Virus record (IMG/VR): IMGVR_UViG_2541047944_000005
Location: 1 to 39,595 of that record
Length of the DNA stretch: 39,595 nucleotides
Source of the DNA: a virus
Taxonomy: Duplodnaviria > Heunggongvirae > Uroviricota > Caudoviricetes
Reading direction: 5' to 3' (one strand)
This document shows, piece by piece, positions 2,801-39,595 of the stretch. Below the pieces are notes generated by a model that worked only from the letters and a program-made list of their open reading frames with translations, did no database searches and had not been told where the DNA came from. A program made the position numbers and the translations under genes. How positions within the stretch are numbered: the stretch's first letter is position 1; each line of letters starts with the position of its first letter.

Positions 2801-3151
2801 ATGAAACTACAGCGCAATTCTTCACAGCCGCGCTTCCGCAACGGTGCGGAACGCCACGCTAACCGTTTCGCTACCAGTGCATCACGTAGCAACTCTCGCT
2901 ACAGCCTGAGCGAAACACACGCAACGCCGGATGGCTACCCAGTAAAACAAATCGGCGAGCATACCTGGCTGATTGAGAAAGCTGGAATTGTGGTCCACAA
3001 ATGCCCACGCAATCCGTTTACCGGAAACCGCATTTTTGCATTGAGCTGTGGCGACAATCAGTTTGGGCAGGATTTCACATTATACGAAGCACTTCGCACG
3101 GTTGATCGTCTGCTTCGCGGGCAAAGTTTTATTAAACAGGCTGATTTATAA
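2801..3151 (+). CDS. hypothetical early protein
   Basis: 116-aa ORF starting a new rightward gene string; no motif recognised. Confidence 0.45.
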   Translation: MKLQRNSSQPRFRNGAERHANRFATSASRSNSRYSLSETHATPDGYPVKQIGEHTWLIEKAGIVVHKCPRNPFTGNRIFALSCGDNQFGQDFTLYEALRTVDRLLRGQSFIKQADL

Positions 3152-3161
3152 CGGGTGCTTT

Positions 3162-3449
3162 ATGACCAAAGACCATGCACAAGGTGTATTTATCCGTTTT
3201 ATTGATTTTCGCGATGAACTGTTATTACGTGCATCCGCTATTGACGGAGTGACTCCGGCGGGTAAAAACGGAGCCGACGAAGCCACTTACGTTTATCTGA
3301 ACGGCACGCGACTGCTTGTGGAACTTCCGTACCAGACCGTACGAGAAATCATTAGCGAAGCTGAAAAGGCACGCCAAGTTAATGGCGATGAACCCTATAT
3401 CGAAATTATTTGTATGGATTCAGAAGCTGAAATTAAGAAAGCAGATTAA
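3162..3449 (+). CDS. hypothetical early protein
   Basis: 95 aa from ATG 3162 (MTKDHAQGVF...); track ORF 3048-3449 overlaps the previous gene, so the internal start was chosen. Confidence 0.45.
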   Translation: MTKDHAQGVFIRFIDFRDELLLRASAIDGVTPAGKNGADEATYVYLNGTRLLVELPYQTVREIISEAEKARQVNGDEPYIEIICMDSEAEIKKAD

Positions 3450-3457
3450 AGGGCGTT

Positions 3458-3703
3458 GTGATGGGCAAAGAATATAAAACTCTCATTAACAAAGCACTTG
3501 AGCGTTTTTATTTTCGCTTAAGCGCATCAGGCGCTCATGCTGAACGTGCAGCCCGTGACTCATTGACCAGGGCAATCCGGAGTTTGTATGACGTCGCTTT
3601 TTACGCTGATGATCTGGATGCACTTAACGAACTTTCCGAGCTGATCTGTGCCGCAGAATGCGGGGAACATATTGAACCGTATAAGCTGGGGAATATTGCA
3701 TGA
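3458..3703 (+). CDS. hypothetical early protein (81 aa)
   Basis: ORF tightly packed after the previous gene; stop overlaps next ATG (ATGA). Confidence 0.4.
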   Translation: MMGKEYKTLINKALERFYFRLSASGAHAERAARDSLTRAIRSLYDVAFYADDLDALNELSELICAAECGEHIEPYKLGNIA

Positions 3704-3813
3704 GTATATTTATCTCATGGCTTGTTCTGATTATTTCGGTGGCCTGCGCCATTGGGATTATGCGAATTATTCATTCAGTAAAAAAGATTGAACGCTTTTT
3801 CACTGGCGAATAA
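3700..3813 (+). CDS. possible small hydrophobic membrane peptide (37 aa)
   Basis: Hand-translated MSIFISWLVLIISVACAIGIMRIIHSVKKIERFFTGE; start overlaps previous stop; below the ORF-track size cutoff. Confidence 0.3.
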   Translation: MSIFISWLVLIISVACAIGIMRIIHSVKKIERFFTGE

Positions 3814-3899
3814 CAGAGCAAATAAAACCACAGGTTAGATAAGAAAATGTAAAAACAATCCGCATTCGCGGAGGTATTCGCACACGCCAAGGAGGCGCA

Positions 3900-4103
3900 A
3901 TGGCAATTAAGCGATTTACCGTCGTTCGTTTCACTTCCAGAGGACGTGAATACGAAGTTGACGAACGGCTGATTAAAACGCTCGACCGTCACCGTTCGCA
4001 ACCTGACGCGCATCACATTTATCTCACTGACGACACTTACTTCTGCGCCACCAACGTGGTGCAGGTGAATCTTATCAGACAGGTACAGGAGTCACGCAGA
4101 TGA
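3900..4103 (+). CDS. hypothetical protein (67 aa)
   Basis: Strong RBS AAGGAGG 5 nt upstream of ATG 3900. Confidence 0.5.
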   Translation: MAIKRFTVVRFTSRGREYEVDERLIKTLDRHRSQPDAHHIYLTDDTYFCATNVVQVNLIRQVQESRR

Positions 4104-4345
4104 CCATTCTGGACTACATCGCCGCCAATCCGGGTTGTAGCGGTGGAGAAATCGCCGCAGCACTGAATACCCCAACCACAGCCATTAATGCGGAGTTACG
4201 CCGACTCTGGCGCAGCGGTTCAGTCATAAGAAAAGAGCGCAAAACAGGCGGTCGCTTTTCTTACCAGATAAACCCGATGCCGTTCGGGTGCGGCAATCCA
4301 CTTACCAACACGTTTAACCAGCTACTGAAGGAAGCCAGAGCATGA
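4100..4345 (+). CDS. small DNA-binding protein, probable winged-helix
   Basis: 81 aa; segment GCSGGEIAAALNTPTTAINAELRRLWRSGSVIRKER resembles a winged-HTH recognition region; start overlaps upstream stop. Confidence 0.45.
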   Translation: MTILDYIAANPGCSGGEIAAALNTPTTAINAELRRLWRSGSVIRKERKTGGRFSYQINPMPFGCGNPLTNTFNQLLKEARA

Positions 4346-4641
4346 GCGCCATCAACCACCAGGAATTACGCGAACTGGCGACTGACCTGCAACGAATGGC
4401 AACGCCTCAAAAATTACTGGCGTTTCGCGCAATGCTCTCGCCGTCTGCTGTGCTGGCACTGCTGGATGAGCTGGAGCACGCCAGAACCATGGCTCCAGCC
4501 ATTCGCCTGACGCTCCATCATGAAATCGCTGATTTCTGCGCACCACTGGGTTCGCCTGGTGAACCAGAAACGCCGGAAGCAATACAGCAAGAGCTGCTGC
4601 AACGCATTGACAAGGTTTTCGATTTTTTCCTTAACCAGTAA
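4342..4641 (+). CDS. hypothetical early protein (99 aa)
   Basis: ORF translationally coupled to the preceding gene; no motif recognised. Confidence 0.45.
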   Translation: MSAINHQELRELATDLQRMATPQKLLAFRAMLSPSAVLALLDELEHARTMAPAIRLTLHHEIADFCAPLGSPGEPETPEAIQQELLQRIDKVFDFFLNQ

Positions 4642-4651
4642 GGGCCGCAAC

Positions 4652-4855
4652 ATGAACAACAAGACATGGTTTCGCGCATACATGTGGGCGCTGGTATGCG
4701 TCCTCATTTCTCTCATCCTGTATGCAGGACTACTCCCCCGAATGATTTCATCTGACAGTTCCTTCCTGGTATTGCTGGGCATTTTCATTGCCCTGCTGTA
4801 CCCGGCAGGCGTTGTTCGCTTTTTCAGTAAATACATTGAGGAAATCAAACCATGA
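4652..4855 (+). CDS. small two-helix membrane protein (67 aa), partner of the SPFH gene
   Basis: MNNKTWFRAYMWALVCVLISLILYAGLL...LVLLGIFIALLYPAGVV has two hydrophobic segments; stop overlaps the ATG of the SPFH gene. Confidence 0.5.
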   Translation: MNNKTWFRAYMWALVCVLISLILYAGLLPRMISSDSSFLVLLGIFIALLYPAGVVRFFSKYIEEIKP

Positions 4856-5676
4856 AAAAACTCTTTCCGGTTATCCCGCTTTTTGCCGCCATCTTCCTGG
4901 TTGGTTGCGATCGCGTTGAGCCAGGTAATGTGGGCATCAAAGTCAACAAACTGGGCGACGACAAAGGCGTCGGCGAAGTGGTTGGCGTTGGCCGCTACTG
5001 GACTGGCTGGAATACCGAGGTTTACATCTTCCCGACCTTCAAACAAATGAAGACCTACGATGAGCCGTTCAGCTTCCAGATGAGTGACGGCACAACCATC
5101 GGCTATCACATCGGTGTGGCCTACAAGGTTGATCCATCCAAAGTTACTACAGTGTTTCAGACCTACCGCAAAGGCGTGGATGACATTACCGACACTGACC
5201 TGCGCCAGAAGATCGCCGATGCACTCAACCGACTGGCCAGCAAAATGACCACCGACAAATTTATCGACGGAGGGAAATCTGAACTACTGGATGCAGCTCT
5301 TAAAGACATTCAGGAGGAAATGACACCCATCGGTATTCAGGTAATGAGCCTCTCATATGTGGGTAAGCCGGAGTACCCGTCAACCGTTATCGACAGCATT
5401 AATGCCAAAGTCACGGCAAACCAGAAAACCCTGCAACGCGAACAGGAAGTCAAGCAACGTGAAGCAGAAGCCAACATGTTGCGCGCAGAAGCTGCCGGAC
5501 AGGCTGATGCCATTCGCACAAAAGCCCAGGCTGAAGCCGACGCCATTCGTTTACGCGGTGAAGCTCTGCGCCAGAATCCCGGCGTTATGGAGCTGGAAGC
5601 AATCAACAAATGGAACGGCACGCTGCCGCAATACATGACCAGCAACACCGCTGTTCCGTTTGTTCCGGTGAAGTAA
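4852..5676 (+). CDS. SPFH/band-7 (stomatin-prohibitin-flotillin-HflK/C) family lipoprotein
   Basis: 274 aa; signal peptide with lipobox LVGC near the N-terminus; SPFH-like core followed by Ala/Glu/Arg-rich coiled-coil tail (QREQEVKQREAEANMLRAEAAGQADAIR...). Confidence 0.7.
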   Translation: MKKLFPVIPLFAAIFLVGCDRVEPGNVGIKVNKLGDDKGVGEVVGVGRYWTGWNTEVYIFPTFKQMKTYDEPFSFQMSDGTTIGYHIGVAYKVDPSKVTTVFQTYRKGVDDITDTDLRQKIADALNRLASKMTTDKFIDGGKSELLDAALKDIQEEMTPIGIQVMSLSYVGKPEYPSTVIDSINAKVTANQKTLQREQEVKQREAEANMLRAEAAGQADAIRTKAQAEADAIRLRGEALRQNPGVMELEAINKWNGTLPQYMTSNTAVPFVPVK

Positions 5677-5682
5677 TTAAAC

Positions 5683-5728
5683 CCGGCCAGTGAAAATCGC
5701 TGGCCGGAGCAGTATCAGGATTTTTTTA
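5683..5728 (+). terminator. hairpin plus downstream T-run after the SPFH gene (weak intrinsic terminator)
   Basis: ccggccag...ctggccgg stem 5683-5707; T7 run at 5722-5728 is not immediately adjacent, so the call is weak. Confidence 0.35.
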
Positions 5729-6044
5729 GTATGCCGTTCTCACAAAAAAACCACTTGCCATGCCGCAATCAGTCAGGTTACATTTCCGCTGCACCTCACA
5801 AAACGAGTGCCGGGATTGGAACCCCGCTGACTATGCACGCGCACAACCGCGCCAGCGGTTTTTTTGTGCGTACCGTATCGCCACGTCTTTTTCGCGTCAG
5901 AATTATGGTGGGGCGTATGGGGCCGACTTCGGTCGGGCCGGATTCGTGCGTAGCCGGTAGTTCCAACCCTGTACGTCTCACCACCCCGAGCTTGGAACCT
6001 CTGGATGGTGAGTTTTTAAAACTTACTACGTACGAGGCCACCCC

Positions 6045-6275
6045 ATGGCAAACCGCAAACAGCACCGCGCTATCGCGGAGCGTCGTCACATCCAGACTGA
6101 AATCAACCGCAGACTTTTCCGCGCATTCCGCGTCGCGCATATCATGCACATCAATATGCTGCATGAACGCAGTCACGCACTATCGAACAGCTATTCCGCC
6201 TCTGTTTTCAGCTATCTGGCAGATGATCTGCGCGAGCTTCAAAAGCTCATCCAGCAGCAAAACAAACTCCATTAA
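6045..6275 (+). CDS. possible small basic protein (76 aa)
   Basis: ORF with GAGG 7 nt upstream of ATG; Arg/His-rich N-terminus; may instead be non-coding. Confidence 0.25.
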   Translation: MANRKQHRAIAERRHIQTEINRRLFRAFRVAHIMHINMLHERSHALSNSYSASVFSYLADDLRELQKLIQQQNKLH

Positions 6276-6347
6276 TTCCTGTTCCGGGCCTTTCCTGCAC
6301 CTTGCGGCGGGAGGCCTTCGCACATCTGTAACAAGAGGATTGCCGCA

Positions 6348-6713
6348 ATGATTCTCGCCAACGACTTTCTTGAATATCTGCTCAACACAGAACGTGATCT
6401 TGCCGCTCGCGTGCGTGATCGTTATGACATGTACCTGAAATCCCTGCCTGTACCGCAGCTCGCTGACGGAAAGATTGTTATTGATGGTCGCTACATGATT
6501 GACAGCCACGAGGGAAATTACAGGCTTTACCGCATTGAAGGTGGCACCCCGTCCGTTATTGGCATTTACCAGCGCCCATCCTCTGCAATCGTCGATGTGA
6601 TTGCCGACAGCATCCGCATCACACATCGCCATGCCGACACAGAAGACACCGTGCTGGAAATTCAGCGGCTGGCTGCCGTTTGCCGTGACACCCTCAACGG
6701 CATGACGAAGTAA
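6348..6713 (+). CDS. hypothetical protein immediately upstream of replication gene A
   Basis: 121 aa, AAGAGGA RBS; same position as the small orfs preceding A in P2. Confidence 0.5.
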   Translation: MILANDFLEYLLNTERDLAARVRDRYDMYLKSLPVPQLADGKIVIDGRYMIDSHEGNYRLYRIEGGTPSVIGIYQRPSSAIVDVIADSIRITHRHADTEDTVLEIQRLAAVCRDTLNGMTK

Positions 6714-6719
6714 ATCACT

Positions 6720-9542
6720 ATGACGGCAGAGTACATCAGGGACTGGCAACAACCGCGCCACGCAGTGGGGCGTGAAGGAACGGGGATCCCCGCTCCTGAA
6801 TCCGCACTTTCCTCCTGGCTGGATGCCTACCGGGTAGAGAACGAGCGCCGCCAGGAAATGGCTGATGCGGCGTTCTCCGCCACGCCACTGGGCAACCTGA
6901 TTAATAAAAGCCTGGACGCGCAGGAAAAACAGGACAAAACCATCACACTGGCAGGAGACGCCAGAAAACAGGCACGCGGTGCGGTGGATGAAGCCATGGC
7001 CTCGCTGCGCCTGCTGCCGTCCTATCTGCGCGATCCGCTTATTCGCCACCTCTCCTTCCTGCGCAAAAAACAGGAAGCCGATCGCCGGAAAGGCAAAAAG
7101 AGCTGGCAGGCGGAACGCTATGCACGCGGAACCCTGCGCAAAATATTGGAACGCCTGGCCCGCACTGACGGACGCTGGCTGACTCCGGGTTATCGCTCCC
7201 TTGCCGGACGTGAACGTCTGGACGATTTACTTTACCTGCCGCAGCTCAACAAACACCAGATACAGACACTGGCCGTCATGACGGCGGCAATGTTCAGCAG
7301 CACCTTCGAAAAACTCTGCGATGGCTTTGGCGCGACCGATGGCGAGCTGACCATGGATATAACGCTGAAGGCGTATCAGCTGCTGGCTCGCATGGCGTTA
7401 CATCTGCACACAGTGCCTCCGCATTATGACGCACTGACAACAGACAAAGACCGGAGGAACGAACCGGACACAGAACTGCTGCCGGGTGCAATCCTTCGCC
7501 TGACCTGTGCGGACTGGTGGAAACGCAAATTGTGGCTTTTACGTTGCGAATGGAGAGAGGAACAACTCCGCGCTGCCTGTCTGGTTTCCAGAAAAACATC
7601 CCCCTATCTGAGTCAGGATGCATTAAGTGAATTTCGCGCACAGCGCGAGAAAACACGCGATTTCCTGAAAAGTTTCATGCTGGAAAATGAAGACGGGTTC
7701 ACGATTGATCTCGAGACGGTGTATTACGCAGGTGTCAGTAACCCGGTCCACCGTAAAGCAGAAATGATGGCCACCATGAAAGGGCTGGAACTTCTGGCCG
7801 AAGCCCGTGGCGACAAAGCGGTGTTTCTGACTGTCACCTGCCCGTCAAAATACCACGCCACAACGGAGAACGGTCATCCGAATCCCAAATGGAACGGGGC
7901 CACAATGCGCGACTCCAGCGATTACCTGGTTAACACGTTTTTTGCGGCGGTCCGCAAAAAACTGAACCGCGACGGCCTGCGCTGGTATGGCATCCGCACG
8001 GTGGAGCCTCACCATGACGGCACTGTGCACTGGCATATGATGGTCTTTGCACATCCGGACGAGATTGAAACCATCGTGTCCCACGTCTGCGATATTGCCA
8101 TTCAGGAGGACCGCCACGAGCTGGGCGATGACATAACTCCGCGTTTTAAGGCGGAGTATGTCGACGGCTCAAAAGGCACACCAACCAGCTACATCGCCAC
8201 CTACATCGGAAAGAACCTGGACAGCCGCGCCGTGGATGGCATCGACCCGAAAACGGGCAAGCCACGCGTTGACCACGAAACCGGAAAATCAATGGCCGAG
8301 AGCGTGGAGCGCGCCATCGGCTGGGCGCGCCTTCACCGGGTCCGTCAGTTCCAGTTCTTTGGCATCCCCTCCCGTCAGGTGTGGCGTGAACTGCGCCGCC
8401 TTGCCAGCCAGATGGCACGCAATCCGGAAGGCCCGCAACGGCTGAAAGATGATGCAATGGATGCGGTACTCGCTGCCGCCGATGCCGGGTGTTTTGCCAC
8501 CTACATTGAAAAACAGGGCGGCGTACTTGTTCCACGCAAAGACTACCTGATTCGCACCGCCTACGACCTCGCAGATGAGCTGAATGATTACGGCGAACAG
8601 AGCGTACAGATTTACGGGATCTGGTCACCACTCATCGGGGAATCCTCCCGTGTGTGCACGCATCCGGATAACTGGAAACTGGTAAGACGTAAACCGGAAA
8701 CGGAAGACAGCGCCCGCGAAAATGGTTTTGACCTTCAGGGCGGCCCTGCCGCCCCTTGGACTCGTGGCAATAACTGTCCCCGTGTACAGGAAACGGACAA
8801 CAACGGGACAGAACAGCCGGAAGAACGACCAGCACCGTGGCCGCAGCTCCCTGACGGCGTTGAAGTGAACGAATGGATGCGCTCACTGAAACGGCACGAA
8901 CGCCGGGCGCTGATGCGTTCGCTTCGTGACAAACAGGCAAAAAACAGCAGTGATGAAATGCAGAGCTGGACACAGAGCCGCAAACAGCAGCGGCCTTTGC
9001 CTGATAACCACGAATTACTCGCTAAAGAATGGCGGGAATCTGCCGAATCTCTCGGCCTGCATATCGGTGAACAGCAGATGCAGCACCTGTTACGGGGCGG
9101 CAGCCTGTACGTTGACGGTAGCATCATTGCACCGCAGGGATTTGAAATTGTACGCAAACCGGATACCCGCCCGGACAGCCGAATCACGCAGTTCTGGCAG
9201 CGCCTGAGCCGTAATCACGGCGTAAGCAGCACAGAGATCCGCCATAACCCGGTCGCCAGCTATCTGGAACAACTGGGGGCATCAGACCCCGAAGCCGCCG
9301 CACGTCTGGCATCCACACTTCAGCAGGACCAGAACACCATGAAAACCCCCGTTACCGTGCTTTCTGACATGCTGCGCGCCATCCGTGACGCAGAGCACGC
9401 ACAGAGAATCAGTGAAACCACTGAACGCGCCCACCGCAAAGCAGACCTGCTGCGGGGTAGCCTGACCAGTGGAAACAAAAAACAGACAGAAACGGGACTC
9501 ACAAATCCCGTAAATGAGCAAAAAACGCGCCGCGATATATGA
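6720..9542 (+). CDS. A: rolling-circle replication initiator, P2 gpA family
   Basis: 940 aa; HUH-type motif HDGTVHWHMMVFAH and downstream Tyr-containing segment typical of P2 A/186 RepA; lies between early operon and cargo as in P2. Confidence 0.85.
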   Translation: MTAEYIRDWQQPRHAVGREGTGIPAPESALSSWLDAYRVENERRQEMADAAFSATPLGNLINKSLDAQEKQDKTITLAGDARKQARGAVDEAMASLRLLPSYLRDPLIRHLSFLRKKQEADRRKGKKSWQAERYARGTLRKILERLARTDGRWLTPGYRSLAGRERLDDLLYLPQLNKHQIQTLAVMTAAMFSSTFEKLCDGFGATDGELTMDITLKAYQLLARMALHLHTVPPHYDALTTDKDRRNEPDTELLPGAILRLTCADWWKRKLWLLRCEWREEQLRAACLVSRKTSPYLSQDALSEFRAQREKTRDFLKSFMLENEDGFTIDLETVYYAGVSNPVHRKAEMMATMKGLELLAEARGDKAVFLTVTCPSKYHATTENGHPNPKWNGATMRDSSDYLVNTFFAAVRKKLNRDGLRWYGIRTVEPHHDGTVHWHMMVFAHPDEIETIVSHVCDIAIQEDRHELGDDITPRFKAEYVDGSKGTPTSYIATYIGKNLDSRAVDGIDPKTGKPRVDHETGKSMAESVERAIGWARLHRVRQFQFFGIPSRQVWRELRRLASQMARNPEGPQRLKDDAMDAVLAAADAGCFATYIEKQGGVLVPRKDYLIRTAYDLADELNDYGEQSVQIYGIWSPLIGESSRVCTHPDNWKLVRRKPETEDSARENGFDLQGGPAAPWTRGNNCPRVQETDNNGTEQPEERPAPWPQLPDGVEVNEWMRSLKRHERRALMRSLRDKQAKNSSDEMQSWTQSRKQQRPLPDNHELLAKEWRESAESLGLHIGEQQMQHLLRGGSLYVDGSIIAPQGFEIVRKPDTRPDSRITQFWQRLSRNHGVSSTEIRHNPVASYLEQLGASDPEAAARLASTLQQDQNTMKTPVTVLSDMLRAIRDAEHAQRISETTERAHRKADLLRGSLTSGNKKQTETGLTNPVNEQKTRRDI

Positions 9543-9618
9543 AGCGCGCACAAAACAGGCAAAAGCGGGATTTAAAAATCCTGTAACCGATTAATTAATC
9601 AACATAAGGAAAAGCTAC

Positions 9619-10578
9619 ATGAAAATTTGTATCGACGACGGCTCCACCAACATCAAGCTGGCATGGACTGAGAACGGCGAACGCCGCAACGCCATCAGCC
9701 CGAACAGCTTCAAGTCGGAATGGTCTGCGCCGTTCGGTGGCACGCAGCCCGCGAACTACATGCTTGATGGCGTGCGCTATGGTTTTGATCCGGTCAGCGA
9801 TCGCTTTGTCCAGACGACCGACACGCAATACCAGTACAGCGATGTGAATGTAATCGCCATTCACCACGCGCTGGTCAAATCAGGCATCACACCACAGGAA
9901 GTGGATGTGGTTGTCACCCTGCCACTGAGCGAATATTTCGACACAAACGCACAGCCGGACATGGCCAACATCAACCGCAAAAAAGCGAACGTCATGCGCC
10001 CGGTGGAGTACCAGAACGGCGAAGCATTCACTATCCGTAACGTACGGGTTATGCCTGAATCCATTCCGGCTGGCTTTAAGGCACTGGCTGACATGAGTCC
10101 GTTTGAATCCCTGCTGATTGTGGATTTAGGCGGAACCACACTGGATGTGGCAAAGGTTCAGGGGCAACTGGCAGGTATCAGCCAGGTGTTTTGCGATCCA
10201 CACGTAGGCGTTTCCCTGATGGCCGATGCCGTACTGTCGGTGATGGCCACTAACGGTATGCGTACCAGTCACCACATCGCCAATACCATTATCGAACATC
10301 GCCATGATGAAGCCTGGTTGCGCCAGCACATCCACAATGACGCGCATTACGCCAGCCTGATGGCGGTTATTCGTGAAAAGGAAGAAACACTGAAACAACG
10401 CGTGATCCGCGCGCTGGCGGGTTTTTCGGGTTACGGGCGGGTGATGGTTGTCGGTGGCGGGGCGGAGATTGTGGCACCCGCTATCCGCGAAGCCTGCGGA
10501 GTTAATGCGACTTTCATCGCGGACGGGGTGCCACAGTTTGCTCTGGTTAATGGGCTGTACGCAATGGACAAGGAGTAA
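9619..10578 (+). CDS. parM: ParM/StbA-like actin-family segregation ATPase
   Basis: 319 aa; N-terminus MKICIDDGSTNIKLAW...SPNSF...YSDVNVIAIHHAL...MPESIPAG...LLIVDLGGTTLDV...MVVGGGAEI matches plasmid R1 ParM motif by motif as recalled; AAGGA RBS. Confidence 0.85.
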   Translation: MKICIDDGSTNIKLAWTENGERRNAISPNSFKSEWSAPFGGTQPANYMLDGVRYGFDPVSDRFVQTTDTQYQYSDVNVIAIHHALVKSGITPQEVDVVVTLPLSEYFDTNAQPDMANINRKKANVMRPVEYQNGEAFTIRNVRVMPESIPAGFKALADMSPFESLLIVDLGGTTLDVAKVQGQLAGISQVFCDPHVGVSLMADAVLSVMATNGMRTSHHIANTIIEHRHDEAWLRQHIHNDAHYASLMAVIREKEETLKQRVIRALAGFSGYGRVMVVGGGAEIVAPAIREACGVNATFIADGVPQFALVNGLYAMDKE

Positions 10579-10582
10579 ACCA

Positions 10583-10894
10583 ATGACGACACCAACCAGA
10601 CGGATAAGTTTCTATCTGAAGCCCGCCGCCGTCAAGAACGAAGGCGAAGCATGCGCCTGGCTGGACAGCCTTACACCAGAAGCCCGCAAAAGTGGTCAAC
10701 GCGTGGCTTTTCTGGCCGGACTGGCACTTATGAAAATTAATCCGGCAGAGGCTTACCGACTGGCTGCATGGGCTGACGATGAAGCGTTATCCCTGACACA
10801 AACCAGGACAGAACGCCCCGTGTCACAGCCAGTACCAACCGCACAGATAACCAGTCAGATGGCCGGAAATATCCGGGCATTATTTCCCGAATAA
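10583..10894 (+). CDS. parR: ParR-like adaptor protein
   Basis: 103 aa from ATG 10583 after AAGGAG; RRISFYLKPAAV...AWLDSL...RVAFLAGLALMKINP...NIRALFPE parallels R1 ParR (RRTIAFKLNP...DTLDSI...AALTAGLALYRQDP...LRSLFPKE) as recalled. Confidence 0.7.
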   Translation: MTTPTRRISFYLKPAAVKNEGEACAWLDSLTPEARKSGQRVAFLAGLALMKINPAEAYRLAAWADDEALSLTQTRTERPVSQPVPTAQITSQMAGNIRALFPE

Positions 10895-10957
10895 CACAAC
10901 ATCAGGGCGCATCCGCCCTGATGACTTTAATCCGGGAACATAAACAAAGGGGACACA

Positions 10958-11293
10958 ATGCAACACATTGACAGAGAAAAAGCGCAGCGACTGATTGAGC
11001 GAATGGAAGCGCTGGCGAAAGAAGAAAATGTCAACATCCAAAAAATAGCTGAATGTGGCCGGATAGTTCTTCGTCGTGAAAAAGACATCAAACAACTGAT
11101 GTCTGGCGAAACCAGCAAAACATGGACTTCAGGCGAGAAGACGATTTATTGCAGCTTCTGCAATAAATCCCAGTACGAAGTCACAAAGCTGATTGCCGGA
11201 CCGTCTGTTTACATCTGCAATGAGTGCGTTGATTTGTGCAATGAATTTATCAGGAGAGAAGTGACAGACCATGAAGAAAAAACGCATGAATGA
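10958..11293 (+). CDS. small protein with C-terminal ClpX-type C4 zinc-binding domain
   Basis: 111 aa; residues [38 protein letters not shown] are near-identical to the E. coli ClpX N-terminal zinc-binding domain ([37 protein letters not shown]) as recalled; no AAA+ module follows. Confidence 0.7.
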
Positions 11294-11459
11294 CGAATTT
11301 GACGGCTTTTAATTTTATCGGGGCGCACTGTCGCCATGCATGGAGAAAAACAATAAAAAAGATGAATAACTGCTCATGTCAGACGCGCTGCGGGCAAGTC
11401 TGGCACCCTGCCCTGTCTCCGCAAAGGCTGTTGTCTTAACACGACAGAGTATGCCAGCA

Positions 11460-11867
11460 TTAAATATAATCTTCTTCGTAGTCGCTGATTAATTCATTGC
11501 CATAATCAGACAGCAATTTCAAAGCAAAGGTAACTTCCTCAAGGGTAGCTATCCCCATTGCTGAAAACACCGTTAATTTAACCAGCAGCAGGGAGTTTGA
11601 AAGTTCGGAAGAGTTCATCATTAAAAATATTGATGCAGCCTGAAAAGCTGTGCGTTTATTCCCATCATGAAAGGCATGAGCCTTGGCTATACCAATCAAA
11701 TACATAGCAGCCAGAGCATGAATATCATCAACCCCTTCATAGTAGTGTAGTGTCCTGACGCGATTTAAAGCACCTTCAAGTAGCCCGTCATTGGCATTTC
11801 CGCTCTGGGGTAAAGTTTCAGCATGGATACGTTCTACTTGTTCTTTTGACAAAAACACTATGTCCAT
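11460..11867 (-). CDS. doc: Doc (death-on-curing) Fic-family toxin
   Basis: 135 aa; Fic motif HAFHDGNKRTA; start overlaps stop of the upstream antitoxin gene; AT-rich. Confidence 0.85.
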   Translation of the reverse strand: MDIVFLSKEQVERIHAETLPQSGNANDGLLEGALNRVRTLHYYEGVDDIHALAAMYLIGIAKAHAFHDGNKRTAFQAASIFLMMNSSELSNSLLLVKLTVFSAMGIATLEEVTFALKLLSDYGNELISDYEEDYI

Positions 11868-12223
11868 CAGTTATCCTCAAGCTTTTTAATGATATCCGCA
11901 TGTTTTTCTCTTGTACGCTTCATTGCATCTTCAAAAGACAATCCTTTTTTTCTCTGTGCGACAAGAGCTGGATGACGTTTTTCCAGATCTCTCACTGCAT
12001 TTATTAAGAGTGGTTGCTTCATTTTGTTTATTTGATCCCGCAGTTTTTTGGTTTTGCCAAGGACAGCCCGTATTTCAGGACTAAGATCAGAACCAGCAAG
12101 AACAACATCCTTCCCTCCCTGCGCCGTGATAACGACACTGCCACCGGAAGAAAGGTAATCCAGAATTTCACTCAGGTTCTCACGAAATTCATCATCAGTT
12201 ACAGTTTTCATATTCATTTCCAT
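11867..12223 (-). CDS. phd: Phd/YefM-family antitoxin
   Basis: 118 aa; N-terminal region EFRENLSEILDYLSSGGSVVITAQGGKDVVL resembles Phd/YefM; start may be the third ATG (12211). Longer than P1 Phd. Confidence 0.65.
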   Translation of the reverse strand: MEMNMKTVTDDEFRENLSEILDYLSSGGSVVITAQGGKDVVLAGSDLSPEIRAVLGKTKKLRDQINKMKQPLLINAVRDLEKRHPALVAQRKKGLSFEDAMKRTREKHADIIKKLEDN

Positions 12224-12823
12224 TATGCACGCCCATAACGTAAGTATAACTACTTGTTGGGCAGTAATAACACCGCCATATTTTCATTTTATACACCGCA
12301 CAATAGTGCACAAATTTGCACAATTTTTTTGAACGACTTTTTACCCTTCCGGCCCGCATGGCGGCTGGATCCGTCAAGGATCCGTGCGTGCACAAAAAAA
12401 CGCGTTTTTTTCTGCGCGCAGGTGACGGGGGAACAGCCCGCGTTTCAGGGGGTAAATAGCATTCCCTGAACGATGTCGCAGCGACACAACAGAATGGCTG
12501 TATCGCTCACGCTGAGCGTGAAAAAGACGTAAGGGGTTCTGATTTAATGGGATGAAAGGTAAGGCCGTCAAAATCGCACTGAGGCGGCGAGAACATGCAG
12601 TCAGCGCGGTGGGATTGTGTAAGAGTCTGGCCGTCGATGATGGCAATAAGTCGGAAGACGTCGTGAAATTATCTGATTGATACGGGAGCTGGAGAGTCGG
12701 GGCATAAATTTTTTATGCCCCGGCGAAGCAGCAGACAAGCGAAGCGCGTCAGTGATGCGGCACCTTGCCGACCACACTTCATAAGTGCAAAATACGAGCA
12801 AAGAAATCAATGGAGGCTGTCTT

Positions 12824-13348
12824 ATGGTCATTAATTACAAGCAGTTAAGAGAAAAACGGGAGCAGGTAAAGGAGAGCTTTCGCCGCAATGAAGATCTGAC
12901 CCCGCTTGTACGCCTTGCCCAGGGCATTGTTGATGATTATGAAATCTCGCTGGAGCTGCCATCACAGACCTGGACAGATAGCGACGGTAATCGCCAGCAT
13001 TACGTTTCATGCGGACTGGAAGCAGCCGAAGGATTTCGCAGAATGCCTTTATCCCAGATCCCTGCCGCTACCCCCAAAGCACGGGGCAGCAATGATGAGC
13101 GAAAACTGACTTTTAGTATTGAAACGGTGGTTGACGACACACCTGGCGAAGTCGCGTTCGTGCACACTCCTCTTTCGATCGCAATGTATAACGATGAAAT
13201 ACAGGTTCGCGTTAATAATAATATCGTGCCACTTAAAGAAGGTAATTCACCATACACCACCGTTTGTGAAGCCATTCAATATTACGTTCTCTCTGAAATT
13301 GATAATCTCAAGCCTGACGGCACCCAGAAAATGGTTCAACTCTGGTAA
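12824..13348 (+). CDS. hypothetical protein (174 aa), orphan cargo gene next to portal
   Basis: ATG 12824 after GGAGG RBS; followed by a clean intrinsic terminator; no motif recognised. Confidence 0.55.
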   Translation: MVINYKQLREKREQVKESFRRNEDLTPLVRLAQGIVDDYEISLELPSQTWTDSDGNRQHYVSCGLEAAEGFRRMPLSQIPAATPKARGSNDERKLTFSIETVVDDTPGEVAFVHTPLSIAMYNDEIQVRVNNNIVPLKEGNSPYTTVCEAIQYYVLSEIDNLKPDGTQKMVQLW

Positions 13349-13362
13349 AAAGAACAGCCCCA

Positions 13363-18120
<4,758 letters not shown>

Positions 18121-37409: not shown

Positions 37410-37670
37410 ATGTTCCGTTGTCCGCTTTGTGGCGCATCTGCCCGTATCCGCACCAGTCGTTCGGAAAATGATTCAAACACCGTACGGAAAAAATATTACC
37501 AGTGTAACAACCTGGAATGCGGCATAAGTTTCTCAACACTGGAAGCTTTCCATAAATTCACATCGAAACACGCCCCCGGCGTTCACTCTTCAGAAGGTAT
37601 CCCGTGGCATGAGTTGCCAGCTTCACACAGGGGAAACAATCAGATGAGTTTGCCTTTATCTCAGAATTAA
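37410..37670 (+). CDS. ogr: Ogr/Delta-family zinc-finger late transcription activator
   Basis: MFRCPLCGASARIRTSR...YYQCNNLECGISF matches the P2 Ogr Cys4 motif as recalled (MFHCPLCQHAAHARTSR...YHQCQNVNCSATF); AAGGGAGG RBS. Confidence 0.8.
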   Translation: MFRCPLCGASARIRTSRSENDSNTVRKKYYQCNNLECGISFSTLEAFHKFTSKHAPGVHSSEGIPWHELPASHRGNNQMSLPLSQN

Positions 37671-37861: not shown

Positions 37862-38002
37862 ATGTCGCAAAAATCGCTTACGGCCATCACGTTCTGCGTG
37901 ACGGTAATCCTCATAATCTGGATGCTGCACGGTTCGCTGTGTGAAATACGGATGAGCTTCTGGGGAGCGGAGTTTGCGGCGTTCTTACAGTGTAAGCAGT
38001 AA
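37862..38002 (+). CDS. Hok/Gef-family type I toxin peptide
   Basis: Hand-translated 46 aa MSQKSLTAITFCVTVILIIWMLHGSLCEIRMSFWGAEFAAFLQCKQ: TM helix, SLCEIR and AAF motifs as in Hok/Gef; GC-rich fold-back-prone leader 37700-37860. Confidence 0.65.
   Translation: MSQKSLTAITFCVTVILIIWMLHGSLCEIRMSFWGAEFAAFLQCKQ

Positions 38003-38302: not shown

Positions 38303-39595
<1,293 letters not shown>

Follow-up and report, generated by a model that had tools for sequence, protein, structure and literature searches.

In the ParMRC partition system of plasmid R1, the centromere parC consists of ten 11-bp direct iterons. P2-like phages, for their part, replicate by rolling circle into monomer circles that also serve as the packaging substrate, and gene A of P2, which drives this lytic replication, is repressed in lysogens. 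The subject of the present report is a locus at which partition genes and a P2-type replication gene lie side by side: a stretch of 39,595 nucleotides of Caudoviricetes DNA (IMG/VR record IMGVR_UViG_2541047944_000005, positions 1 to 39,595; the window hereafter), in which replication gene A is followed by a parM/parR pair (parMR) and then by a gene for a 111-aa protein that bears a zinc-binding domain of the ClpX type. The original prediction for this DNA, made from its sequence, had described the three genes as a trio of variable cargo lodged between gene A and the packaging genes of an integrated P2-like prophage, had wondered what an integrated phage would want with a partition system, and had suggested that a free ClpX domain could act as a decoy or dominant-negative for ClpXP.

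The premise that an integrated phage needs no partition system is unsafe. As extracts of the published work describe it, the integrated Corynebacterium prophage CGP3 transports its viral DNA, and replicates it efficiently, with the help of an actin-like protein, AlpC, and of AlpA as the adaptor (PMC4446434, PMC5539076). The region itself has also been noticed before, in that the excerpted parts of Rousset et al. 2022 (PMC9122126) mention the partition system and include a table listing “StbA + Plasmid_stab_B + zf-C4_ClpX” loci. On the protease side, the hydrophobic patch formed by ClpX residues F16 and I46 binds lambda O, SspB, RssB, and trigger factor, and the ClpX zinc-binding domain is required for lambda O degradation and is bound by MuA (PMC7804408, PMC7226468).

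The comparisons set out below show that parMR is a lineage-defining core module of P88-like phages rather than variable cargo, that the zinc-finger gene is independent hotspot cargo, and that the trio is a neighborhood and not a system. The partition pair is already annotated and in the literature; the stand-alone ClpX-domain protein represents an uncharacterized family with a plausible mechanism. As to function, the account that we favor, tentatively and as something a little short of probable, is a joint one, in which ParMR acts on extrachromosomal phage circles and the 111-aa protein competes for ligands of the ClpX N-domain.

The parMR pair and its upstream site

The element is an integrated P2-like prophage of E. 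coli, of the P88 type, because the window begins inside int and has ogr, a Hok/Gef gene, and the host's serS at its other end; gene A and portal gene Q lie between (Table 1), and phage P88 and other Xuanwuvirus (Peduoviridae) genomes match the region at 97% identity. The original prediction was right in this respect, and also in its naming of the two partition proteins. Both are matched by their profile families, and the window ParM aligns end to end with R1 ParM (PDB 1mwk, E 9e-93), its phosphate- and adenosine-binding motifs IDDGSTNIK, DLGGTTLD, and GGGAE intact. The parR start codon lies 5 bp past the parM stop. ParR retains an N-terminal RRISFYLKP segment and a C-terminal Asn-x4-Phe-Pro tail down to 33% identity, with a linker that varies; this tail is invariant among phage ParRs sharing only 33-35% identity, and its Asn is likewise invariant, within a similar tail, in the ParR proteins of plasmid pCMY-136 and phage D6. 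If R1 ParR is taken as a guide, the RRISFYLKP segment may be read as the DNA-binding part and the tail as the contact to ParM. The pair is complete and its components are intact.

It is also strongly maintained. Against close relatives, the ratio of non-synonymous to synonymous substitution rates (dN/dS) is 0-0.11 for parM, 0.08-0.23 for gpA, and 0.14-0.44 for parR, and between the window and P88 the parM genes differ by 16 synonymous and 0 non-synonymous changes, so that parM is under very strong purifying selection, stronger than that on gene A. Among complete E. coli genomes, parMR DNA is present in 1307 of 5426, about a quarter, and 1453 of the 1455 copies are chromosomal. The ParM protein is 98-100% identical in intact P88-like phage records. 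Within the phage collection, the only ParM outside P88-like phages is that of phage-plasmid D6, at 47.8% identity; the best plasmid ParM is ~52% identical, and among more than 5000 plasmid ParMs none falls at 60-99% identity. The cassette is thus no recent acquisition. P2-like prophages of three other genera repeat the gpA-parM-parR order, namely those of Plesiomonas (ParM 63% identical), Serratia (58%), and Enterobacter (54%, here with two small genes between A and parM), and the genes that follow parR in these loci differ, being an unknown 226-aa protein, HicAB, and a KAP NTPase. These diverged loci came from protein search and contig look-ups; scanning genome contigs with ParM had returned near-identical relatives only. 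The description of the A-to-Q interval as variable cargo thus stands for the zinc-finger gene and fails for parMR, whose identity among P88-like phages and whose gene order across genera are those of a core module. Such conservation argues for a working segregation machine long needed by the phage lineage.

The candidate centromere lies at the junction of gene A, the left border of the module, with parM. A 38-nt direct repeat is found there in two copies, 79% identical and 73 bp apart, the first of them within the last 67 bases of gene A, and each copy holds a palindrome of the form CGGGA-N8-TCCYG. The pattern CGGGA-N6-10-TCCYG is matched 6 times, counted by strand and falling at four positions, where 0.8 would be expected; no shuffled sequence gave as many as 6. 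Across six P88-like loci the half-sites are invariant and two of the intervening bases vary (consensus GGGAyT-N4-AATCCC); in most relatives the repeat 2 position reads AATCCCGTAA. An analogous layout is seen in the Plesiomonas locus, with GCGGGA...CCCG twice at 72 bp spacing, and the Serratia and Enterobacter relatives have paired inverted sites upstream of parM, each with its own sequence. This pattern fits a ParR-binding site that co-evolves with ParR. The two upstream repeats of the original prediction do exist, as parts of the 38-nt repeat, although the second, AAATCCTGTAA, lies at 9576-9586 and not at 9584-9594; the doubt then expressed about a ten-repeat centromere of the R1 type was justified, in that no iteron array was found upstream of parM, only the two palindromic sites.

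Possible further centromere copies were considered and rejected. The 11-mer matched ten times against one expected, but the additional matches lie in tail-fiber repeats or other coding DNA and have no palindromic partner.

ParR itself exists in a second allele, 53-55% identical to that of the window, at three loci: L004 (5965-6279, E. albertii), L102 (3615-3929), and L100 (3640-3927). This allele has the N-terminal segment and C-terminal tail of the window ParR, and it is accompanied by a ParM of 99% identity, with the same palindromes upstream. In the E. albertii prophage, specifically, ParM is 99.7% identical and ParR 53%, the N-terminal segment and palindromes being unchanged. At L100 the allele is left as a pseudogene remnant only, parM having been removed by insertion of phd/doc. 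A P88-like gpA-parM-parR locus, 98% identical, is also present on a 226-kb contig of a genome labeled Vagococcus sp. WN89Y, a Firmicute, an assembly that looks like enterobacterial contamination or mislabeling.

How might such a module serve an integrating phage? In the account that we favor, dimers of ParR would occupy both palindromes of the A/parM junction, and ParR-capped filaments of ParM would push or position copies of the phage genome. The cassette is probably expressed with the early replication operon, because no plus-strand terminator was seen between gene A and parM and no sigma-70 promoter above threshold was found there by a consensus scan. ParMR would act on circles after infection or excision, during rolling-circle replication, such that monomer circles are kept apart and distributed; it would not be maintaining a stable plasmid lysogen. 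Low-copy extrachromosomal residence, as expected of a type II partition system, is not what the genomes show, with nearly all copies chromosomal and serS flanking the present element. The near-absence of extrachromosomal copies and the constraint on parM are more in keeping with a function exercised in each cycle than with an occasional plasmid state.

Several observations weigh on the other side. R1 parC, with its ten iterons, has far more sites than the two seen here, which could thus be an operator only. A P88-like prophage with a 96%-identical gpA (locus L104; IMGVR_UViG_2778261421_000003, 3145-6992) is without parM, parR, and the zinc-finger gene, and parMR is thus dispensable for the existence of at least one catalogued prophage; the same phd/doc pair as in the window sits there ~270 bp from gene A. 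The remaining points speak for a facultative phage-plasmid, in which parMR, aided by addiction through hok and phd/doc, would let the unintegrated phage persist as a low-copy plasmid. The prophage does carry both toxin loci, Hok/Gef at 37862-38002 and phd/doc at 11460-12223; a circular 34.5-kb “plasmid” record, pZ1323PEC0009-2, is a whole P88-like genome; and the other phages with a related ParM or a member of the zinc-finger family are only phage-plasmids (D6, D6-like plasmids, and 108-kb elements). Plasmid maintenance is moreover the role suggested in the excerpted text of Rousset et al. 2022 (PMC9122126), and persistence as a plasmid was among the possibilities raised in the original prediction. 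We nonetheless regard this as the less likely course for the phage, if one to be taken seriously. The phage variant of the circular record is integrated in many strains (99.8-99.9% identical), the phage has an integrase, and a circular contig can be the excised, replicating form from spontaneous induction. All but two of the E. coli copies are chromosomal, no plasmid-type replication control was seen, and gene A of P2, as noted at the outset, is a lytic function that lysogens repress.

The ClpX-type zinc-finger protein and its gene

The protein encoded after parR carries the ClpX zinc-binding domain that had been recognized in it, although not as its last 40 residues: the domain occupies residues ~62-102 and is followed by a 9-residue tail. 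Against the structures of the E. coli ClpX domain, 1ovx and 2ds5, the match has E 7e-20 and ~79% identity. The four cysteines, C65-x2-C68-x18-C87-x2-C90, are invariant across the family and spaced as in ClpX. In the AlphaFold model (mean predicted local distance difference test score, pLDDT, 79), a two-helix hairpin (residues 6-48) is joined by a disordered linker (53-59) to the zinc-binding domain, which Foldseek places on 2ds5-2ds8 with a root-mean-square deviation of 0.5-0.8 A at 78% identity, a treble-clef fold. There is no fusion to an AAA+ ATPase; the NCBIfam ClpX equivalog model scores 49 bits against cut-offs of 359-371, and the protein is not a ClpX. Its full-length match is to phrog_6797, a family of unknown function.

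The likeness extends to the surface on which ClpX meets its partners. F67, the counterpart of ClpX F16, is invariant in the family; position 97, the counterpart of I46, is Ile, Val, or Phe; and one 11-residue strand of the domain is identical to that of ClpX. The hydrophobic docking patch of ClpX (F16, I46, and the strand) is, as judged from these alignments, retained. Compared with K-12 clpX, there are 31 synonymous differences over ~58 codons, so that the synonymous rate (dS) is saturated, and yet the core domain is ~79% identical in protein, which argues for selection on ClpX-like surfaces and not for a fresh copy. The N-terminal hairpin is conserved across three phage lineages at 44-54% overall identity and is peculiar to the family, its 12 matches among 1.8 billion representative proteins all falling within it. 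Neither sequence search nor fold search, in which the zinc-binding domain alone matched, gave a clue to a partner of the hairpin. Short stand-alone ClpX-type zinc-finger open reading frames (ORFs) without a hairpin occur in many unrelated phages (Pseudomonas phages of 48-57 kb, Caulobacter phage Cr30), and jumbo phages encode whole ClpX homologues.

The gene is far less widespread than parMR, being present in ~115 of the 1307 parMR-bearing genomes, so that ~90% of parMR phages are without it. Conversely, it occurs without parMR. Of 80 IMG/VR loci, ~45 are of the P88-like kind and have the gene immediately behind parR, ~32 are phage-plasmid contexts, and 4 are P2-like loci lacking parMR. In one of these four (L100), parM is gone and parR is a remnant interrupted by a stop, whereas the zinc-finger gene is whole. 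In the phage-plasmid contexts the gene follows an Ead/Ea22 gene within a run of small “ea” genes, an arrangement also found in D6, in the D6-like plasmids pEc1079_2 and pEF-4, and in the 108-kb phage PhiR41_1; in pEc1079_2 it lies ~20 kb from parMR. By this distribution, the zinc-finger gene would belong to the “ea/Ea22” class of small early genes that shuffle among temperate coliphages, and the claim that the three genes form a unit does not survive.

Next after the zinc-finger gene there nearly always comes another gene, the start of which overlaps the zinc-finger stop (ATGA). In P88-like phages this partner encodes a 113-aa protein (P88 gene 20; L007, 5308-5646), and in phage-plasmids another protein, with a conserved N-terminal region of ~130 aa (L002, 7135-7914; L022, 6300-6830). 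The two partner genes are mutually unrelated and gave no informative Pfam match. In the window, only a 49-codon remnant ORF (11290-11439) follows the zinc-finger gene.

Competition is the simplest mechanism for such a protein because the patch that it retains is the one to which lambda O, SspB, RssB, and trigger factor bind. Adaptor tails and the substrates that depend on the ClpX N-domain would be contested between that domain and a free dimer of the 111-aa protein, and the competition would shift substrate choice by ClpXP, leaving basal degradation unblocked. The beneficiary might be a stabilized phage or host protein, sigma-S, or Phd, or the gain might lie in exclusion of ClpX-dependent phages such as Mu. 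The earlier idea of a decoy or dominant-negative for ClpX is compatible with all of these findings. In its more ambitious form, in which the protein reprograms ClpXP in trans by titrating SspB, RssB/sigma-S, UmuD, lambda O-like initiators, and MuA, and ParMR is an actin machine on replicating circles, the proposal is possible and no better than that.

Three features sit uneasily with competition. The conserved hairpin has no evident role in a pure decoy model, the usual overlapping partner gene could mean a two-gene system of another kind, and the presence of related phd/doc genes beside two divergent zinc-finger alleles is suggestive of a tie closer than competition in general would call for. 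The main alternative is a plug-in adaptor, in which the protein would form mixed dimers with the ClpX N-domain or dock on ClpX, its hairpin holding a target that is either delivered to ClpXP or shielded from it. Wojtyra et al. are said to have described the ClpX domain as a dimerization module in 2003, and the dimer-packing helix, CVDLCNxxIR, is conserved in the present family. Conservation of the hairpin across three phage lineages suggests a binding partner of its own, and the flexible linker between the two parts is as in known tethering adaptors. Mixed dimers must form against stable homodimers, however, and an N-terminal domain restricted to this family offers no clue to a ligand; we consider the adaptor role unlikely, if well short of fanciful.

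Could the domain be a zinc ribbon with no connection to ClpXP at all, that is, a small regulator binding DNA or RNA polymerase in the manner of Ogr/Delta? P2-like phages often carry small C4 zinc-finger regulators, the window has its own Ogr, and the annotation of phrog_6797 would not stand in the way. It is, however, hard to explain on such grounds why 78-79% identity to the host ClpX domain, surface residues included, should be held across synonymous saturation, and this explanation strikes us as improbable.

The variable slot and its other cargo

Comparison with P88 locates the cargo slot closely. The window and P88 are near-identical through the hairpin that closes the conserved parMR block (Table 1), which is the left edge of the slot, and on through the zinc-finger gene; beyond it, P88 has its 113-aa gene (gene 20), whereas the window has phd/doc on the opposite strand, doc being hotspot cargo that replaces P88 gene 20 in this lineage. 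Phage P884B11 has an Ead/Ea22-like gene in the zinc-finger position and meets the shared block just where the window does. Because P88, P884B11, and the window differ between shared edges, the slot can be placed at ~10958-12297, with the zinc-finger gene inside it. Within this A-to-Q slot the zinc-finger gene, phd/doc, P88 gene 20, and Ea22-like genes substitute for one another. Position between gpA and gpQ together with difference among near-identical phages, which is what marks hotspot cargo, is found for 10958-12297 and is not found for parMR.

The shared block at the right edge is probably a packaging (cos) region. In the excerpted parts of Rousset 2022 (PMC9122126), the P2 hotspot adjoins cos. 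An Rfam search of 9300-13500 gave no match. PADLOC returned none for ParM, ParR, the zinc-finger protein, Phd, or the 187-aa ORF that precedes portal gene Q, and only weak, partial Fic-domain matches for Doc. That 187-aa ORF is absent in P88 and present in a few IMG/VR relatives (L046, L058), and it marks a second small variable slot.

Table 1. Features of the window, with positions counted from its first nucleotide.
Feature	Position	Strand	Evidence and remarks
Integrase gene (int)	left end of window		window begins inside int
Replication gene A, rolling-circle initiator, 940 aa	6720-9542	+	Pfam Phage_GPA, E 4e-128; near-identical records annotate replication endonuclease
Repeat 1 of parC-like site	9476-9513		palindrome CGGGActcacaaaTCCCG at 9493-9510; inside 3' end of gene A
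Repeat 2 of parC-like site	9549-9586		palindrome CGGGATTTaaAAATCCTG at 9566-9583; 33 bp upstream of parM start
parM, actin-fold segregation ATPase, 319 aa	9619-10578	+	Pfam StbA_N 1.8e-82; ParM C-terminal domain 1.3e-68
parR, Plasmid_stab_B (ParR/StbB) family adaptor, 103 aa	10583-10894	+	Pfam Plasmid_stab_B 1.9e-25, residues 6-76
Hairpin, 10-bp G+C-rich stem	10900-10923		terminator-like on minus strand; identical in P88
Stand-alone ClpX-type zinc-binding-domain protein, 111 aa	10958-11293	+	Pfam zf-C4_ClpX (PF06689), residues 64-99, 8.5e-18
doc, Fic-fold toxin of Phd/Doc pair	11460-11867	-	Pfam Fic 3.5e-11; NCBIfam DOC_P1 2.3e-14; Fic motif HAFHDGNKR
phd antitoxin, 118 aa	11867-12223	-	PhdYeFM_antitox 7.8e-07, 29.2 bits, just under cut-off of 29.8
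Conserved non-coding block, ~460 bp	12298-12760		common to P88; left end 12298-12341 common to P884B11; right slot edge
187-aa ORF	12785-13348	+	phrog_5091, function unknown; no Pfam match; between conserved block and portal gene Q
Portal gene Q	13363-14409		
ogr	37410-37670		right end of prophage
Hok/Gef-family toxin gene, 46 aa	37862-38002	+	Pfam 3.7e-07; after ogr, before serS
Host serS	38303-39595		right flank of prophage

The two genes on the minus strand have the layout of a Phd/Doc type II toxin-antitoxin system, with the Fic motif HxFxD(A/G)NKR, a preceding antitoxin gene, and genes that abut at 11867; the antitoxin is longer than the Pfam Phd/YefM model, and a near-identical record annotates it as a Phd/YefM family antitoxin. 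The hok arrangement is found also in a P88-like prophage at another integration site (CB6837), and hok is therefore phage-borne. Taken with parMR, phd/doc and hok make three plasmid-type maintenance modules on one prophage. No att repeats were found in the window, which starts inside int.

The Phd antitoxin of P1 is reportedly a ClpXP substrate, as Lehnherr and Yarmolinsky are said to have found in 1995. It is thus conceivable that the zinc-finger protein tunes a toxin-antitoxin system, controlling ClpXP turnover of Phd, whether that of its neighbor or that of a rival P1-like plasmid, and so setting or canceling the activation of Doc. The two genes adjoin in the window; a distant P2-like phage has a 58%-identical doc cassette beside a 37%-identical zinc-finger allele, the genes being differently arranged; the window's phd/doc allele was seen in 18 complete E. 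coli genomes, and in these only beside the zinc-finger gene; and the D6-like phage-plasmid pEc1079_2 carries both genes. Against this, ~85% of zinc-finger loci have no phd/doc nearby, the pair being present in only 18 of the ~115 genomes and at 4 of the 80 IMG/VR loci. The same phd/doc occurs without the zinc-finger gene in L104 and L109, and more distant doc relatives do so in L110-L116. Adjacency is seen in only ~2 of 4 P2-like doc lineages, and a slot this small makes any two cargo genes adjacent. A dedicated link to Phd accordingly seems to us a long shot.

Finally, that the zinc-finger protein is a third partition component or a regulator of ParMR, as might be thought from its gene always standing directly after parR where present in P88-like phages, and from a second ParR allele accompanying a second zinc-finger allele in L102 (and, as a remnant, in L100), is very improbable and appears largely refuted by the distribution of the gene, which is missing from most parMR phages, stays intact where parM is deleted and parR a pseudogene, turns up in P2-like phages devoid of parMR, is separated from parMR by 20 kb in the D6-like plasmid, and is absent beside the second ParR allele of E. 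albertii.

Significance and relation to known systems

About a quarter of complete E. coli genomes, then, carry a chromosomal, phage-borne cassette of the actin type that is constrained more tightly than the phage's own replication initiator, and through the parMR locus one can readily ask what need an integrating phage has of a cytoskeleton that moves DNA. The zinc-finger protein is, for its part, a simple case of a mobile element copying the docking domain of a host protease. To our knowledge, no natural free-standing mimic of the ClpX docking domain has been described, and our literature search returned no study of stand-alone ClpX-domain proteins and none of ParM function in P88. If competition is indeed what the protein does, it would set a precedent as a natural mimic of the recognition domain that a protease itself carries, put to use for self-protection, lysogen fitness, or exclusion of ClpX-dependent phages. 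Were ClpXP redirected in this way, sigma-S control, the SOS mutagenesis proteins, toxin-antitoxin stability, and growth of Mu-type phages would be affected, and the protein might serve as a small natural reagent with which to block, selectively, the degradation by ClpXP that depends on adaptors. Should both ideas fail, what is left is a well-annotated core module beside ordinary hotspot cargo.

Among partition systems, R1 ParMRC is matched in the full-length alignment of ParM, in a ParR of the same Pfam family encoded directly downstream, and in putative ParR sites just upstream of parM. The window ParM is, however, only ~50% identical, and it belongs to an integrative P2-like phage and not to a plasmid; two palindromes 73 bp apart, with no sigma-70 promoter detected, stand where R1 has its iterons. 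The P1-like phage-plasmid D6 shares a ParM of 47.8% identity and a zinc-finger family member of 50% identity. D6 differs in being a true plasmid prophage with a plasmid replicon, in the distance of ~20 kb between its zinc-finger gene and its par genes, and in its upstream repeats, which are unrelated (TCTCAAAT..TCTCA, three copies). The AlpC/AlpA/alpS system of CGP3, as far as the published extracts go, is likewise that of an integrated prophage, with an actin-like filament protein and a DNA-binding adaptor for viral DNA, and it is the functional model adopted here; AlpC is of another actin-like family and its host of another phylum, so that the resemblance is one of logic only.

The slot corresponds in position, beside the packaging site, to the A-to-Q hotspot that holds tin/old in P2, as the excerpted parts of Rousset et al. 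2022 present it, with the differences that parMR is not variable and that doc alone among the cargo matches defense models, by weak and partial Fic-domain hits. With ClpX's zinc-binding domain, the 111-aa protein has in common the C4 spacing, the fold, 78-79% identity, and a conserved docking patch; it departs from ClpX in being free-standing, without the AAA+ module, in having a lineage-specific two-helix hairpin in front, and in being encoded by a temperate phage. The closest functional parallels may be the anti-adaptors IraD, IraM, and IraP and competing adaptors such as SspB, small proteins that likewise redirect ClpXP choice at the adaptor/N-domain interface (PMC7226468). These act by binding RssB or by presenting a docking peptide, whereas the phage protein would act through a copy of the ClpX domain, which none of them possesses.

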